Of a DNA stretch of 64,000 bases, positions 2,679 to 8,628 are shown one piece after another. A program made the position numbers and the translations under genes. Source of the DNA: an uncultured Myxococcales bacterium. Its GTDB lineage: Bacteria; Myxococcota; UBA727; JABDBI01. A model generated the notes under the pieces. It did no database searches. It was given only the letters and a program-made list of their open reading frames with translations, and was not told the DNA's origin. The stretch is from assembly GCA_964493205.1 (NCBI GenBank), contig CAZBMJ010000002.1:50238-114237 (forward strand), in the 5' to 3' direction. How positions within the stretch are numbered: position 1 is the first letter of the stretch; each line of letters opens with the position of its first letter.

Positions 2679-3080
2679 TTAATTAAGTTTAATTGTTAAA
2701 TGATTATCTAAAAATTTAAAAAGCATCATTAATACTGTATAAGGTAATTTAATAATCATTAAAATTAAAAATCCTGTTTTATAAAATATATTAGGATGAT
2801 GTATAACTCCTTTTAATATATCAATCTCTACATCTATATCATCTTCTCTACGTATATGTTCTATATCAGATTCTAATGTATTTTTTGATGCTATTTTTAC
2901 TAAAATATCAGATTCAATTGCACGATTAGGATATACACTTGCATAAATATGAAATATACAACTAAGACTAATAATAATATGTATACTTCCTAATACTAAT
3001 AATGTATTTGGATAATAACTCCATAAATACCATAATGCCCATATTATTAGAGGGATAATTAAAAAATATCTACCTTTCAT
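2679..3080 (-). CDS. Small two-TM membrane protein; paralog family member 3
   Basis: N-terminus MKGRYFLIIPLIIWAL. C-terminus FLDNHLTIKLN. Confidence 0.5.
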   Translation of the reverse strand: MKGRYFLIIPLIIWALWYLWSYYPNTLLVLGSIHIIISLSCIFHIYASVYPNRAIESDILVKIASKNTLESDIEHIRREDDIDVEIDILKGVIHHPNIFYKTGFLILMIIKLPYTVLMMLFKFLDNHLTIKLN

Positions 3081-3433
3081 ACTTTAATAGTTAAATGTTT
3101 GTTTAAAAATCTATTTATAACTATTATTAATAAATTAATTAAAATTAAAATATTAAATCTTGTAATAATTATATTAGATAATTGAAAATGATTATTTCCT
3201 CCTTTAAAATAAAAAATCATAGCATTACTTCTATTGTTAAAAGTATCATCATAATTATATTTATAATCATGTGAAAAACTATAACAAAAATAAATAATAG
3301 AAAAAATAGAGTATAAAAATAATAATACACCTCCTACTACTTTTAATGATTCTATAGGTATTGATGATAATATTGAAATTAAGGTCCATAAAATTATTGG
3401 AATCCATAAAAAATAACTTCCTTTAATTGTCAT
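3077..3433 (-). CDS. Small two-TM membrane protein; paralog family member 4
   Basis: N-terminus MTIKGSYFLWIPIILWTL. C-terminus FLNKHLTIKV. Confidence 0.5.
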   Translation of the reverse strand: MTIKGSYFLWIPIILWTLISILSSIPIESLKVVGGVLLFLYSIFSIIYFCYSFSHDYKYNYDDTFNNRSNAMIFYFKGGNNHFQLSNIIITRFNILILINLLIIVINRFLNKHLTIKV

Positions 3434-3726
3434 ACTTCAACTGTTAATTTTTTGTTAATATATATAAGTATATCTATTATCCATGCAATAGGTCGTAGTG
3501 TAAATAAATCTAAAGGTGACTCTGGTAATTTATCGAAAGTTCCTCTAAGTAATACTTCTATAAGCATAGAAAATGCTAATGTAAAAATTGATACAGGAAT
3601 AATTTCCCATGTTAATTCTATTTGTTCAATACTACAAACTATAAAATCATAATTAATATATCCTATCCATAATAAAATAGGAACAATTAAAAATATTATT
3701 CCTGGTATTTTAATTTTTTGTCTCAT
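3430..3726 (-). CDS. Small two-TM membrane protein; paralog family member 5
   Basis: N-terminus MRQKIKIPGIIFLIVPILLW. C-terminus INKKLTVEV. Confidence 0.5.
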   Translation of the reverse strand: MRQKIKIPGIIFLIVPILLWIGYINYDFIVCSIEQIELTWEIIPVSIFTLAFSMLIEVLLRGTFDKLPESPLDLFTLRPIAWIIDILIYINKKLTVEV

Positions 3727-3762
3727 ATTTAATTGTAAAAATGTTTGTGAAAAAATAAATTG

Positions 3763-4140
3763 TTAGTAACCTTCATAATAGTAAATTGTATATTGATTAG
3801 AAAATAATTTATGAAATATAATTTCGTTAGATTTAACTGTTATTTCATATTGTGTACCATCTCCCCATGCTCTATATACTTTTTCATTTTTTACATCTTT
3901 TTTATCAGTTATAACATACATTTTTATACGTTCTCCTGTATTATGATGTATTACACTATCATAAATATTTATTATATTTACTCGTAGATATCTAGGAGTT
4001 ACTAAAAAATTTTCTTGATACGCTAACGATGTACTTATATAGTTTTGTGTATTACCTATTATAGGTAATAGTAATAATAATAAAATTTTAAATTGTTTCA
4101 TATTTGACGATTTGATTAATAATCTTATAACACTCATCAA
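3763..4140 (-). CDS. Secreted hypothetical protein. The true start is probably the internal Met at ~4101.
   Basis: Signal-peptide-like MKQFKILLLLLLPIIGNTQ begins at residue 14. The upstream extension overlaps the polymerase C-terminal ORF. Confidence 0.45.
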   Translation of the reverse strand: MMSVIRLLIKSSNMKQFKILLLLLLPIIGNTQNYISTSLAYQENFLVTPRYLRVNIINIYDSVIHHNTGERIKMYVITDKKDVKNEKVYRAWGDGTQYEITVKSNEIIFHKLFSNQYTIYYYEGY

Positions 4141-4960
4141 TATACCATTGACGATTTAAATTTGGATATCTTTCTTTTTCTTTAATAATACGTTCTCCTT
4201 TTTTATAATCATATATATCTATTTTAGGTACATTCATTAGTAATGTAACAGGTGTTTGTGCCTGTACTGCTTGTATTGTACCTACTCTTTTTCCTCCTGT
4301 CCATAATTGAGATATAGTTTGAAAACCTCCAGCATAATATCTTATAAATCTACCATCAAATAACTCTGATGTAGCTACACCCTTATCAGGATGGTATTCT
4401 GTTAACATCCATTTATAAAGTTTACTTCCATTATTTCCATAACAAAACTCATGAATATTGTTTTCTTCATTAATAGTATCTTCTATAGGTATTCCTTCTA
4501 TGAAGAATTTCTTTAATGCTTTAGGAATTACTAAGGCACTAAAATCTTTATGATATTCTCCTGATTTTAGTAAATCATCATAATCTTGAAATATGTTTTT
4601 AGTTTTTATATTATTATATGTATCAATAGCTAAATAATTATTAACATCTTTGATAACCATTTTAGTATATTCTACATATTCATAAGGTATATCATCTATT
4701 TCTGTTAATTTATCAAATAAACTTATTGCTAAATCTAATTCAGATCTTTTTATTATAAAAGTAAGACCATCTGTATTAAACTGTAATGGATAAAAATGTG
4801 ATAAGTTAGATTCTAACATATCTACCATCATAGTTAACGTAAGCATACCATTAACAGTTGTACCTATAGTTGCTTTAGTATCATATAGAAAACTATATTC
4901 GCTATTTCCTAACGTATTGTTATCTCTAAGGCTCTTTATCCTTAGATTCTGCACTTTCAT
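4088..4960 (-). CDS. Family B DNA polymerase, C-terminal fragment (motif C plus thumb)
   Basis: YDTKATIGTTVNG resembles the Tx2GR region and LQFNTDGLTF resembles motif C (DTDS-like), downstream of motif B which ends the upstream ORF. A YYAGGF segment is also present. Confidence 0.6.
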   Translation of the reverse strand: MKVQNLRIKSLRDNNTLGNSEYSFLYDTKATIGTTVNGMLTLTMMVDMLESNLSHFYPLQFNTDGLTFIIKRSELDLAISLFDKLTEIDDIPYEYVEYTKMVIKDVNNYLAIDTYNNIKTKNIFQDYDDLLKSGEYHKDFSALVIPKALKKFFIEGIPIEDTINEENNIHEFCYGNNGSKLYKWMLTEYHPDKGVATSELFDGRFIRYYAGGFQTISQLWTGGKRVGTIQAVQAQTPVTLLMNVPKIDIYDYKKGERIIKEKERYPNLNRQWYIDECYKIINQIVKYETI

Positions 4961-5052
4961 TATAGAAGTTATATGTGCAGTCCAGACTATATCTTCATCC
5001 TATAAGGATGTTCCTTTTTCGTGGATAGATTATATTCTCTATAAGAGTTTCA

Positions 5053-6186
5053 CTATCTAGTCGTTACACCTTCATTGTTTGTTAACACAATGCTTGGCTC
5101 GGTATTACTTTCTTCTAAAGCTTTCACCGAATTTAAGGAATGTTTCATATTAGATTGCTCTAATAAGCGGCTGTATCTATAATACATGTTATTTTTTTGT
5201 CTTTGTTTAGTATTTACATTAATTTTAGGATTTATATCATGAATAGTGAGAAATAATATTTTTTTATTATCACCAGCATATTTAAATTGCAATCCTTTAT
5301 AATGTTTTACACGATTATTACAACAATTAGTAATATTTTGAACTTTTAAGTAGCTAATATCTCCAGTTCTAGAATTAGTATTTCTATCTAATATAGGAAA
5401 ATATTTTGGATATTTAATAGAATACTCTTGTATATCTATTGAACTTCTAAAAGTATTAATATATTTACCAAAAGTATCATATACTTCTATATAGGGAGTT
5501 CTGTTTTCTCTTGTTTTAATAGAAGATATCTTTCTAGCTTTTTTAAGTTCTTCAGAAATTGTTTTGGGAACTTTTAAATGATCAAATGTATAACCATTTT
5601 CTTTAGTTCTATTTTTAGAAGAATCTCTAGGAGTAATATAATATATTGCTAATTTCTTATATTTTTTAGGTACATCATCTACAGTTATTTCATTATTTTT
5701 TATTTTTTTTGAATAATTTATAGAAATATTTAAAGTTTCTTTAAAAGATTGTGCTCTTTTTTTATAAACTTCTTCTGAAAATTGATAACCTCCTGTTGCT
5801 TTAATATTAATATTGTAACTAAATTTTTTAGATATACATAAGTCATCTAAATATTTTTGTTCTCTATCGTGTAAAAATTCTAAATTATTAATTATTTCTA
5901 ATATTTCAAATTTAAAAATATTTTCTCCCCATTTATTATATGAAGATTGTAAATAATAATTTTTATGTTTTCCATTTTTTAGGTCTCTAGAATGCTCATT
6001 AAATCTATCTTTAAAAGATCTTCCTGTAGAGCCTACATAAATTTTATTGTTTTTTAAATTTGTAATTTTATAAATACCAAATTTTTCAAAATTGTCTAAA
6101 TTATCTACTATCATTTTATTATTTTTTATTACCACAAAGGTAATAAAAATAATTGTAAATATAGCGTAATAATTAAATTTTAACAT
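5053..6186 (-). CDS. GIY-YIG homing endonuclease inserted between the two DNA polymerase fragments
   Basis: FGIYKITNLKNNKIYVGSTGRSFKDRFNEH matches GIY-(N10)-YVG...R...H. The ATG lies 2 nt after the stop of the polymerase N-terminal ORF. Confidence 0.85.
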   Translation of the reverse strand: MLKFNYYAIFTIIFITFVVIKNNKMIVDNLDNFEKFGIYKITNLKNNKIYVGSTGRSFKDRFNEHSRDLKNGKHKNYYLQSSYNKWGENIFKFEILEIINNLEFLHDREQKYLDDLCISKKFSYNINIKATGGYQFSEEVYKKRAQSFKETLNISINYSKKIKNNEITVDDVPKKYKKLAIYYITPRDSSKNRTKENGYTFDHLKVPKTISEELKKARKISSIKTRENRTPYIEVYDTFGKYINTFRSSIDIQEYSIKYPKYFPILDRNTNSRTGDISYLKVQNITNCCNNRVKHYKGLQFKYAGDNKKILFLTIHDINPKINVNTKQRQKNNMYYRYSRLLEQSNMKHSLNSVKALEESNTEPSIVLTNNEGVTTR

Positions 6187-6190
6187 ATAT

Positions 6191-7348
6191 TTAACTACCG
6201 TAGGAACTATTTAATATAATTTTTAAGCAATGATTAATAATAGGATGTGTTTTCTTACTATATTTTTTTCTCTCATTAAAAGTATTTAAAAGAAATTTAC
6301 CATAACTTTCACCTAAATGAGCAGGCACTCTACCATGTTTCATAGCAAAATGAGGATAATATGAAACTTTATCCCAATCTAAAATTATATATTCTTCACT
6401 ACTTTGATATATACCAGGTTTTGTACTAAAATGTAGACCTCCAGCAGCATATACTATTTCACCATCATAATAAGGAATAATTTTACTAATTTGATTTTTT
6501 AAATTAATAAGTTTTTTATTACTATCAATATTAGATTTTATACTTGCATCAAGAGTTATATTTTTATAGAAATCTAAAGCAGATTTCAATACTGGATTAA
6601 CAAATTTATATTTATTAATATATGGTAATATTACTTCAGAAATAGCTATTTTTTCATTATATGTTTTCAGTTTTTTGACATCTGTTTCACTGATATTTAA
6701 ATCATAAGATAACTGTTTAACCATATATTTTTTAGCTATATCTGGTTCTGTAGAGTTAAGAAGATCTATTTTATTAAAATCTCCAAAATCTATTCTAAGT
6801 TTAAGTAGTTCTTTTGTAAATTTATATACATCTACAGTAGTTTCTACATCATATTTACAATATTTAACAATTTCTTCATCTTGTTTTTCTGTAAGTATAA
6901 GGTCATTAAAATGATAAGGTAAATCTTTAATAGATTTCTTCCTTAAAGAAAATTCTAATTTTTTTAATGATGTAGTTTTAGCACTACGAGGTCCAAAATT
7001 ATTTATAGACATTAAATCTATAGTCTTGTTGCAAAACTCTGATTCTCTATATATGGGCCACTCAGCACCTATATACTCATCATTAAAAGCTTTTATACCT
7101 TCATTGTTTATTGAAGGTCTCTTTGTAATATAAGTTAATATATTCATATCATAAAAAGAATTGTAACCCACAAAGTAAGTATCTTTTTCTTTTATAAGAT
7201 AGTTTTTTAACTTGTCTAATTCATTTATTTGAGTTACTCCATTTACTGTCCATAGTTTAAATGTTAAATATTCCTTGTTATAAGGATCATAAAACACTAC
7301 TAGAAAGTAATTAGGATATACTTCGCAGTCTAGGAAGATTAATCTCAT
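6191..7348 (-). CDS. Family B DNA polymerase, N-terminal fragment (3'-5' exonuclease domain plus palm motifs A and B)
   Basis: Exo I IFLDCEV; Exo II-like YNSFYDMNIL; Exo III YCKYDVETT. Motif A-like LDWDKVSYYPH (DxxSLYPS). Motif B KIILNSSYGS is followed directly by the stop codon. Confidence 0.75.
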   Translation of the reverse strand: MRLIFLDCEVYPNYFLVVFYDPYNKEYLTFKLWTVNGVTQINELDKLKNYLIKEKDTYFVGYNSFYDMNILTYITKRPSINNEGIKAFNDEYIGAEWPIYRESEFCNKTIDLMSINNFGPRSAKTTSLKKLEFSLRKKSIKDLPYHFNDLILTEKQDEEIVKYCKYDVETTVDVYKFTKELLKLRIDFGDFNKIDLLNSTEPDIAKKYMVKQLSYDLNISETDVKKLKTYNEKIAISEVILPYINKYKFVNPVLKSALDFYKNITLDASIKSNIDSNKKLINLKNQISKIIPYYDGEIVYAAGGLHFSTKPGIYQSSEEYIILDWDKVSYYPHFAMKHGRVPAHLGESYGKFLLNTFNERKKYSKKTHPIINHCLKIILNSSYGS

Positions 7349-8040
7349 ATCTTTCTATTTGTATATTGTAAAAATTTTATTATTTTTAATTTATCATAGT
7401 GAATATAATTATCACTTTTATTTTTATATATCCATATAAATCCTTTATATGTGTTTTTATAACCTGAACAACAAGAACTAATAGAACTTAATTTAAAATC
7501 GGGATGATCTTGATTAATTTCTTTTCTAGAAGAATATTGTTTTATAATATTTCTATTAATATCGCATTTTAAAATATAATATTTACTTTGAGAATTAGCA
7601 ATTTTTAAATAGTAATCATTTAATTCTTTTTTCGTAAATTTAGAATATCTTTCTTTTAATCTTAATCTATTTAAATTTTTAGTAGATTCTCTAACTATAT
7701 TACATTCATTACTATTATCTTCTTTACAATTATATCCATATAAAGAATTAGTTACATTATATTTTTTCATATAATGTAATTCTAACTGTTTAAGTAAATT
7801 TTCATCATATTCACTAATAGAAACTAATACATAATATTTGAAATTTTCTATACCATATTTATTTACAGAATTTAATAAATACTGATTTTCTTTCTTACTA
7901 TTATATTTAAAACATGCATTATGAGTAGAAATTCTTTGATAAATATTCTTACTCTGTCCTATATATTTCTTGTTATTTATAGTATTTTCAATACAATAAA
8001 TACCACTTTTATATCTATCTTCTTTTTTTAATTTTAACAT
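7345..8040 (-). CDS. GIY-YIG homing endonuclease
   Basis: SGIYCIENTINNKKYIGQSKNIYQRISTHN. ATGA overlap with the polymerase N-terminal ORF start. Confidence 0.85.
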   Translation of the reverse strand: MLKLKKEDRYKSGIYCIENTINNKKYIGQSKNIYQRISTHNACFKYNSKKENQYLLNSVNKYGIENFKYYVLVSISEYDENLLKQLELHYMKKYNVTNSLYGYNCKEDNSNECNIVRESTKNLNRLRLKERYSKFTKKELNDYYLKIANSQSKYYILKCDINRNIIKQYSSRKEINQDHPDFKLSSISSCCSGYKNTYKGFIWIYKNKSDNYIHYDKLKIIKFLQYTNRKI

Positions 8041-8066
8041 TATAGCATAATTTTTTATATTTTATT

Positions 8067-8315
8067 TTACCACCACCAAGAATTTAATATTGTATTAATA
8101 TTTAAGTTTATAATATCTATACTATTAATATTACCTATATATTCATATCTATTATAGTTAGTATTGTACATTATTTTATTATCTTTAGTAAATTTACTAC
8201 CATAATAATCTTGAAAGGCATATACATTACGATTTATTATATAAATAATAGCAGGTTTATTTTTATAAATAACTTCTTTTAAATGAAGATCCTTTGTTAA
8301 TTCTACCACCACCAA
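8067..8315 (-). CDS. WWW-terminated small protein, member A. The translation initiates at a non-ATG codon.
   Basis: Ends NSWWW-TAA. The ORF-caller start is TTG. No in-frame ATG precedes the family-conserved segment IYIINRNVYAFQDYYG. Confidence 0.5.
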   Translation of the reverse strand: MVVVELTKDLHLKEVIYKNKPAIIYIINRNVYAFQDYYGSKFTKDNKIMYNTNYNRYEYIGNINSIDIINLNINTILNSWWW

Positions 8316-8623
8316 TCATTTAGTTTTGTTAATAATTCAATATATCTTATATTATTAGGCACAAGTTCATAAGAATATTCATAGTTATATTTTTTATACA
8401 TTTTCTCACTATCTTGATTACCTTCTCGTTCATTTTGGAAAATAAACCATCTTCTACAAGATTTATCATAATATAACAATCCTTCGACCTTTGTTAGCTT
8501 ACTTGTTAATACTCCTATAATACAAGATACTGTAGACAAATGATTTTCTATAGTTAAATCTTTAAATTCCATAAGTAAAAATTTAAAATAAAAAAGACCC
8601 TCTGTTACGAGGGCCTTTTTCAT
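8303..8623 (-). CDS. WWW-terminated small protein, member B. The likely start is the internal Met at ~8572.
   Basis: Ends NDWWW-TAG. Contains YYDKSCRRWFIFQNE. The first 17 codons coincide with the upstream terminator hairpin. Confidence 0.5.
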   Translation of the reverse strand: MKKALVTEGLFYFKFLLMEFKDLTIENHLSTVSCIIGVLTSKLTKVEGLLYYDKSCRRWFIFQNEREGNQDSEKMYKKYNYEYSYELVPNNIRYIELLTKLNDWWW

Positions 8624-8626
8624 TTG
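8596..8626 (-). terminator. Rho-independent terminator downstream of gene 8629..9120
   Basis: Minus-strand RNA reads GGCCCUC-GUAACA-GAGGGUC followed by UUUUUUAUUUU. Confidence 0.7.
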
Positions 8627-8628
8627 GA

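Follow-up and report, generated by a model that had tools for sequence, protein, structure and literature searches.

A phage family B DNA polymerase gene very probably interrupted at motif B by a group I intron with a GIY-YIG endonuclease gene

The locus described here lies in a 64,000-nucleotide stretch of contig CAZBMJ010000002.1 (positions 50,238 to 114,237), which we call the window, and the question is how to read its polB gene for a family B DNA polymerase, which appears in two pieces with a gene for a GIY-YIG homing endonuclease between them. The contig (~139 kb) is that of an uncultured and very AT-rich phage (~22% G+C) without a close relative among 50,697 phage records, where a megablast search with positions 1-25000 of the window gave no match. 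Four open reading frames (ORFs) follow each other on the minus strand. In 5′ to 3′ order, they are an ORF of 231 amino acids (aa) from 8040 to 7345, one of 385 aa from 7348 to 6191, one of 377 aa from 6186 to 5053, and one of 290 aa from 4960 to 4088. A first-pass annotation had reported the same four ORFs (7345..8040; 6191..7348, ending in KIILNSSYGS and a stop; 5053..6186; and 4088..4960; all on the minus strand), and it was correct in placing 92 nucleotides (nt) between the endonuclease stop and ATG 4960. Its other spacing, 2 or 5 nt between the polymerase stop and the endonuclease ATG, is wrong: 4 nt lie between the TAA at 6193-6191 and the ATG at 6186. Base composition gave the first hint of an insert, with a G+C content of ~0.3 at 4800-5200 vs. 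~0.2 in the surrounding region. A promoter scan was uninformative in such AT-rich DNA, as sites were no more common than in shuffled sequence.

The 385-aa and 290-aa ORFs contain the two parts of the polymerase. The first part, which we call exon 1 (6197..7348, minus strand), has 384 codons, from Met1 to Gly384 of motif B (KIILNSSYG), and it includes Exo I-III and motif A. The second, exon 2 (4088..4912, minus strand), has 274 codons and a stop, begins with LGNSEYSFLYD, and includes motif C (NTDG) and the thumb. Of the 663 positions of the PHROG 1252 "DNA polymerase" profile, the exon 1 piece matches 53-412 (E = 1.9e-59) and the exon 2 piece 415-655 (E = 5e-41). The joined halves align over their full length with the polymerase of Flavobacterium phage FpV4, which is unsplit, and a search of a large protein collection with the joined sequence finds ~37 full-length unsplit homologues of 650-663 aa with 52-57% identity. 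The alignment to these homologues supports the earlier observation that the halves are collinear and would fuse in frame at motif B.

An alignment of 27 homologous sequences shows Exo I-III and motifs A (DxxSxYP) and B (KxxxNSxYG) to be invariant or nearly so; the residues concerned are D7/E9, N63/Y66/D67, Y163/C164/D167, D326/Y331/P332, and K376/N380/G384. Motif C is NTDG, and not DTDS, throughout the family. Used as a profile, this alignment matches structures of archaeal family B polymerases over the stretch from motif B to motif C (E = 1.8e-6). By the PHROG profile, the conserved motifs, and the archaeal match, the assignment to family B that had been made at first sight holds at the level of sequence comparison. 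The family is too divergent for Pfam, which reports no match for either half or for the joined protein; PF00136 is present in some remote homologues. Seven other proteins of the collection end at the same place as exon 1, where YG is followed by one more residue, G or S, and a stop, and three further homologues end inside motif C. Among the ~50 closest homologues in public protein collections, at least eight are cut off at the exon 1 site.

The arrangement could be taken at face value. The polymerase would then be truly split, with a free-standing GIY-YIG gene between its halves, and the pieces of 385 aa and 290 aa would be translated separately and assemble into an active enzyme. Each piece in the window is indeed an ORF with its own ATG and stop, and the gaps between the ORFs are short, which is why the first-pass annotation preferred a split gene to the alternative it also named, a group I intron whose core overlaps the endonuclease ORF. 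But the gaps look short only because the longest ORFs were chosen. One of them consists of the first nucleotides of an intron, and the other ends at an ATG that occurs by chance in the P9 loop of a ribozyme. A full group I ribozyme fills this "gap" and overlaps the endonuclease ORF, and in relatives of the window exon 2 has no usable start. Both facts go against the preference for a split gene.

The predicted group I intron extends over 4913..6196 on the minus strand (1284 nt). It begins with AGUUAA and ends with the terminal G of ...AACAAUACG. In a scan of 381 nt (4880-5260), the Rfam model RF00028 (Intron_gpI) matches 4962..5191 on the minus strand with 57.4 bits, where 50 is the gathering cut-off (E = 3.6e-14). 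The matched stretch extends from P3 to P9 and takes in the 3′ end of the endonuclease ORF. The complete ribozyme runs from 5174 to 4913, with the guide sequence, P2-P9.1, and the terminal G, and it shares the last ~40 codons of the endonuclease ORF, exactly the overlap of core and ORF that the annotation had allowed for as its second choice.

We compared the window with six related polB loci, five of them from the DNA of relatives in the protein collection (L003, L007, L008, L009, and L010) and one from IMG/VR (L038). The same ribozyme is found at the same codon in all seven loci, the polB genes of which are merely 52-66% identical. What the ribozyme carries is not the same. The introns of the window (1284 nt), L003 (1334 nt), L007 (1279 nt), and L010 (1298 nt) have a GIY-YIG gene in the P1 loop, of 353, 346, 345, and 347 aa, respectively. 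The intron of L008 (990 nt) has instead a 200-aa LAGLIDADG gene in the P7.1/7.2 hairpin between P7 and P3′. The one of L009 (556 nt) has no intact ORF, and the C-terminal 120 codons of the GIY-YIG gene are left in it. Finally, the intron of L038, at the same codon of a more distant polB, has 375 nt and no ORF at all. RF00028 scores 50.7 bits in L009 and 53.7 bits in L038.

These relatives speak directly to the possibility of a split gene. One RNA at one codon, with ORFs that differ, have decayed, or are absent, and that sit in different loops, is not what the insertion of a free-standing gene would leave behind, and the ORF-less 375-nt version and the LAGLIDADG version occupy the identical site. 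In six of the seven loci, an in-frame stop precedes the 3′ splice site by 2-4 codons, and the interval between them has no start codon. In five of those six loci, exon 2 has its first in-frame start 22 codons from its beginning (a TTG is found at codon 9 in L007, and an ATG at codon 5 in L038). The 22-codon stretch that no in-frame start precedes is conserved regardless, as L[S/G]NSEYS.LYDTKAT...NG. Because a stop lies before the 3′ splice site and no start appears until the conserved segment has been passed, the beginning of exon 2 in those relatives can only be expressed after splicing. As for the window, its ATG 4960 is located in the P9 loop, and the next 16 codons, which correspond to P9, P9.1, and the 3′ tail, show conservation of RNA helices and not of protein. 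The C-terminal ORF of 4088..4960 thus exists, but its first 16 codons are intron RNA and not polymerase. We consider a truly split polymerase to be very unlikely.

The borders of the intron follow from the comparison with intact polymerases. Two registers are conceivable for the 5′ splice site, after GGU (6197) or after AGU (6194). In the alignment, exactly one residue separates YG from [S/G]NSEY in all unsplit homologues. Joining the GGU at 6197 to the UUA at 4912 gives YG|LGNSEY in the window, with no insertion or deletion relative to the ~37 unsplit homologues (YG-x-SNSEY). The predicted spliced RNA would read ...UAC GGU + UUA GGA..., with the junction ...AAUAGUUCCUACGGU|UUAGGAAAUAGCGAAUAU... 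and the junction-spanning peptide SSYGLGNSEYSFLYDTK. For L007-L010, the spliced product is YGLSNSEY, which is the consensus of their unsplit relatives, and for L038 it is YGKSNDMY. All seven introns end in ...AACAA(N)CG, with the 3′ splice site directly after. An alignment to intact homologues had been suggested earlier as a way to define the breakpoint, and it sets the junction at YG|L[S/G]NSEY.

In this register, an in-frame UAA (6191..6193, minus strand) stands two codons into the intron, and [A/G]GU UAA is also found in L003, L007, L008, L009, and L010. The N-terminal polymerase ORF is therefore real up to Gly384, and its last Ser codon and its stop are intron RNA. The other 5′ splice site, after AGU (6194) with a pairing to GCUAU at ~6166-6162, was rejected for three reasons: no unsplit homologue has the residue that it adds, L009 and L038 splice cleanly only in the GGU register, and the covarying guide sits downstream of the ORF. 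An intein was rejected as well, as the insert has stops in the polymerase frame and an ORF of its own. The conserved intron start GUUAAAUAUAUGUUAA is not a repeated phage signal, to judge from its lack of enrichment in the window.

The internal guide sequence ACAGCCG, the 3′ strand of P1, is at 5168..5174 (minus strand). Its GCCG (5171-5168) pairs with the exon CGGU, with a U.G wobble at the 5′ splice site in all seven loci, and C5173 pairs with intron G+2. P1 covaries: it is CGGU/GCCG in the window vs. UGGU/GCCA in L038, where the Tyr codon is UAU and not UAC. The guide is 1024 nt away from the 5′ splice site in the window, 49 nt in L038, and 108 nt in L008, which is all there is of the 5′ part of the L008 intron. 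Directly after the guide comes the P2 hairpin AUUAGA-GCAA-UCUAAU (5149..5164, minus strand), with a GNRA loop, which a minimum-energy fold also finds. In L038, P2 is CAUCAG-GUAA-CUGAUG, with five of the six pairs changed on both sides, and in L009 the loop is GAAA.

The rest of the core, also on the minus strand, was modeled by hand inside the Rfam match: P3 (5140-5135 with 5016-5011), P4 (5131-5126 with 5103-5098), P5, P6/P6a, P7 (5062-5058 with 4989-4985), P8 (5010-4996), and the start of P9. Between P7 and P3′ are P7.1 and an inner hairpin (5057-5024, helix 5057-5053 with 5028-5024). The region 4925..4980 forms P9, CUGCAC/GUGCAG (4980-4975 with 4954-4949), with two compensatory pairs, and P9.1 (4946-4940 with 4931-4925), in which five of the seven pairs are compensatory. 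We describe the architecture as IA-like (IA2-like) from the extra P7.1/P7.2 hairpins, since hairpins between P7 and P3′ are a diagnostic feature of subgroup IA.

For a measure of how well this structure is supported, we made a structure alignment (A2) of the seven introns, in which the last 10 exon and first 8 intron bases are joined to the segment from the guide to the terminal G. The ORF of L008 was cut out, P1-P9.1 were written by hand, and pairs were counted. The structure has 61 pairs in 12 helices, and 99.1% of the cells are paired vs. 33-45% when the partners are slid by 1-3 columns. Changes on both sides occur in 28 of the 61 pairs. The observed values were reached by 0 of 500 shuffles on four of five measures, and by 30 of 500 on the remaining one, further pair types. 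The helices that covary are P2 (5/6), P3 (4/6), P5, P6a, P7.1 (4/5), P9, and P9.1 (5/7); P4 has one compensatory pair, and P7 and P8 are invariant. Independently, the minimum-energy fold of 5175→4913 gives P2-P6a, P7.1, P8, P9, and P9.1, with z = -3.58.

On this evidence from comparative sequence analysis, we hold it highly probable that the window has one polB gene, interrupted at motif B by a group I intron that encodes a GIY-YIG homing endonuclease. Several observations weigh against this. The structure used for counting pairs was derived by hand from the same seven sequences in which the pairs were counted, six of which are closely related, and in P1-P3 a single divergent sequence, L038, supplies a large share of the compensatory changes. 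The annotation had recommended a search for group I introns with Rfam, and while the 381-nt scan finds the intron, a scan of the 5.5 kb at 3500-9000 reported none. This miss is evidently an artefact of the speed filters; with the default filters of covariance models, introns that carry an ORF can go unnoticed in AT-rich DNA if the scanned stretch is not kept short. The AGU (6194) register has a plausible pairing with GCUAU at ~6166-6162, at the price of one extra residue relative to the homologues. And the window, unlike its relatives, has an in-frame ATG (4960) upstream of exon 2, from which a separate C-terminal fragment could be made.

The remaining adverse points concern splicing itself, and they are the ones that would favor an intron which is present but which has lost splicing or splices too poorly, so that the polymerase would be dead or dying, in a genome that is defective or depends as a satellite on another. 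Splicing is here a prediction from sequence. P1 is short (4 base pairs, and 2 beyond an A.A mismatch), and in the window it has to span ~1 kb. P10, the pairing of the guide with the 3′ exon, is not evident: inspection gave only one possible pair, U+1 with A5172, with no covariation. The ORF that runs through the core could also disturb folding. Nevertheless, both exons are intact and conserved over their whole length, every helix of the core is paired, and RF00028 scores above its gathering threshold. The same architecture is present in at least four independent phage contigs from different samples, which argues for viability. We give a non-splicing intron only a very small chance.

The endonuclease gene of the intron most likely occupies 5053..6114 (minus strand, 353 aa). 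The longest ORF reaches the ATG at 6186, and the 377-aa ORF annotated at first does exist, but ATG 6186 is probably not its true start. The 24 codons between the two ATGs are not conserved, and L003 has a stop at codon 6 of them; gene callers on identical contigs picked the 353-aa form; and residues 11-102, counted from ATG 6114, align to residues 2-91 of the I-TevI catalytic domain (1MK0/1LN0) with E = 1.7e-11. For these reasons, the sequence comparisons make ATG 6114 the likelier start. Conserved with respect to I-TevI are GIY, YVG, the R of KDRF, the E of REQ, and the N of YNI. The ORF matches Pfam PF01541 with E = 1.5e-9, and PHROG homing-endonuclease families match it too. At the protein level, it has 68-77% identity to the copies in L003, L007, and L010.

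The ORF is out of frame with exon 1. With the guide sequence ~1 kb away from the 5′ splice site, the gene sits in the P1 loop. Its last ~40 codons run through the guide sequence and P2-P7, that is, through ~120 nt of the core, and its stop is a UAG in the 5′ strand of P7.1 (5055-5053). ORFs that overlap an intron core do occur elsewhere, and their expression is then tightly controlled (review, PMC3984707). In the window, a hairpin UUAUUACC-UUUGU-GGUAAUAA (6126..6146, minus strand) ends 11 nt before the endonuclease start codon. It is kept in L003 and L010, and it is absent where the ORF has been lost (L008 and L009). It is possibly a translation control element. We also considered this hairpin as a candidate P2 and rejected it, since it is deleted in L008 and L009, whereas the real P2 (5164..5149) is retained and covaries.

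We infer that the intron is mobile, from the introns at the same site, the conservation of the endonuclease, and a gradient of identity in the exons. Between loci, DNA identity is 75-83% in the endonuclease region, 67-85% in the core, and 60-74% in the exons, and the endonucleases are 68-77% identical in amino acids vs. 52-66% for the host polymerases. Between the window and L003, exon identity is 80-89% within ~270 nt of the junction on both sides, and 62-70% further away. This gradient looks like a co-conversion tract left by homing, as far as sequence identity can tell; local constraint is another possible source of it. Against L007 and L010, the window shows no rise of identity towards the junction.

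A mechanism consistent with these data is the following. The pre-mRNA would self-splice with a guanosine cofactor, as expected by homology with characterised group I introns. The guide, ~1 kb downstream of the 5′ splice site, pairs with the exon CGGU with the U.G wobble, P2-P9.1 form the core, and a terminal G marks the 3′ end; exon ligation would yield a family B polymerase of 658 aa. On unspliced RNA, the UAA two codons into the intron would halt ribosomes. The I-TevI-like enzyme may cut intron-less polB alleles of co-infecting relatives near the insertion site, and recombinational repair would then copy the intron, together with some flanking exon, into the cut alleles. As the guide sequence and P2-P7 are also coding sequence of the endonuclease, translating the enzyme and folding the ribozyme probably exclude each other on one RNA at one time.

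A bolder proposal joins two ideas. The first is that the GIY-YIG and LAGLIDADG endonucleases, two families unrelated to each other, independently colonised one ribozyme at one polymerase codon; with decayed and empty forms in circulation too, this clade of phage polB genes would contain a complete cycle of gain and loss that is still running. The second is that, for each transcript, translation of the endonuclease and splicing of polB are mutually exclusive. That both should be true together is tentative, and we would sooner bet against it than for it. If it were true, the exclusion would force a switch, by timing or by partition of the transcripts, and the hairpin before the start codon would be the candidate control element.

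The 20-mer GATGAAGATATAGTCTGGAC (P8′-J8/7-P7′) is a handy probe for this class of introns. It matches 41 IMG/VR viral contigs (L011-L051), with diverse flanking genes, which are mostly other phage introns; L038 was obtained in this way. In L020 the flanking sequence looks like a family A polymerase motif, and L042 has two copies of the motif 280 nt apart. By blastn, the 263-nt core has only partial matches in the 50,697 phage records (coverage ≤46%), mostly to crAss-like and Flavobacterium phages. Within the window, a search with the J8/7-P7 motif gives no further introns of the same type beyond chance.

Other interruptions of related polymerases came up in the comparison. In L053 (4770..5840, homologue P0045), a second interruption is located within motif C (NT|DG) of a related polB. 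The insert, apparently an intron, shows partial Rfam group I matches (34.2 and 20.9 bits), has a P1 in which GAACACU pairs with GGUGUUC, and carries a different GIY-YIG gene of 246 aa; P0046 and P0053 are truncated at the same place in motif C. In L038, polB seems to have a further intron at ~11150..11625 (minus strand), upstream of the one in motif B. The motif A region (ALYPSIAI...) follows directly after it, and the end of an ORF that resembles homing endonuclease genes lies before it; the Rfam match is weak (16 bits, E = 0.23), and the contig ends there.

The first of the four ORFs (7345..8040, minus strand, 231 aa) is a second GIY-YIG gene. It adjoins the polymerase start, as the annotation had it, with its stop overlapping the polB start as ATGA. 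It matches Pfam PF01541 (E = 5.6e-9) and PHROG 7168 and 314. With the intronic enzyme it shares the catalytic domain alone (41% identity over 63 aa), and L003, L007, L008, L009, and L010 have no counterpart upstream of polB. From its sequence and distribution, the gene most plausibly encodes a free-standing homing endonuclease that this lineage has acquired. In this it resembles the free-standing endonucleases of the seg/mob type, being intergenic, next to a conserved gene, and absent from related genomes. There are free-standing enzymes whose target coincides with an intron insertion site (review, PMC3984707). "Collaborative homing" joins a free-standing endonuclease with a nearby intron; here, the intron has an intact endonuclease of its own.

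Some features in the neighborhood of polB are worth recording. Just downstream of it, the minus-strand ORFs 2679..3080, 3077..3433, and 3430..3726 are in tandem and overlapping, have hydrophobic N-terminal halves, and end similarly (HLTIKLN, HLTIKV, and KLTVEV); they look like a tandemly duplicated family of membrane proteins. On the other side, six small minus-strand ORFs of ~80-135 aa (8067..8315, 8303..8632, 9496..9747, 13897..14133, 14115..14363, and 14703..15116) end in Trp-Trp-Trp directly before the stop, and several of them overlap the next ORF. They could be a paralogous family, or the shared ending could be due to a conserved TGGTGGTGG signal at gene junctions. Between the ORFs 8629..9120 and 8303..8623, a strong G+C-rich hairpin followed by a T-run (8586..8625) looks like a terminator on both strands, and it also yields several weak and spurious Rfam matches to small RNAs and leaders.

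For annotation, the consequence is that this polymerase should be entered as one protein of 658 aa with an intron, and not as two fragments. The seven loci also offer a natural series (empty, GIY-YIG, LAGLIDADG, and decayed) in which to study the entry, movement, and loss of endonucleases in a ribozyme. What is known about group I introns in general is unchanged by this case.

The closest mechanistic model among known systems is the td intron of phage T4 with I-TevI, a group IA2 intron with a GIY-YIG enzyme. The catalytic domain of the endonuclease here is homologous to that of I-TevI (E = 1.7e-11), both introns have an insertion of the P7.1/P7.2 type between P7 and P3′, and in both the ORF extends into the core. 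The J8/7-P7-P9 region (AGAUAUAGUCUG, CUGCA...UGCAG) presumably resembles that of td too. The two systems differ in the host gene, which is thymidylate synthase in T4 and a divergent family B polymerase here, and in the place of the ORF, which is in P6 in td and here in the P1 loop, reading through the guide and P2-P7, ~120 nt of the core. Beyond the catalytic domain of 90 residues, the protein here is unrelated to I-TevI at the level that can be detected.

Group I introns with homing endonucleases are established in phage DNA polymerase genes, with examples in SPO1, Bastille, T7-like phages, and Pf-WMP3 (PMC3984707, PMC3428280, PMC11878797). The introns of SPO1/SP82 (I-HmuI), Bastille (I-BasI), the T7-like phages, and Pf-WMP3 (I-PfoP3I) are, like the one described here, mobile introns in a conserved catalytic motif of a phage replicative polymerase, and they follow the same logic, by which the target of the endonuclease cannot drift. 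Those polymerases are reportedly of family A, and their endonucleases are said to be HNH nicking enzymes. Here, in contrast, a family B polymerase is interrupted at motif B (KxxxNSxYG), and the enzyme belongs to the GIY-YIG type. The split gene 43 of the Aeromonas phage Aeh1 type also encodes a family B polymerase, with a homing endonuclease gene between two polymerase ORFs. The split gene 43 of some T4-like phages is said to make two polypeptides, with no ribozyme and with separate translation signals for each half. In our case, a ribozyme is present, and the relatives have no start codon for exon 2. The locus differs from what is known in a family B host gene interrupted at motif B, an ORF in the P1 loop that runs through the core, and four coexisting forms of one ribozyme.

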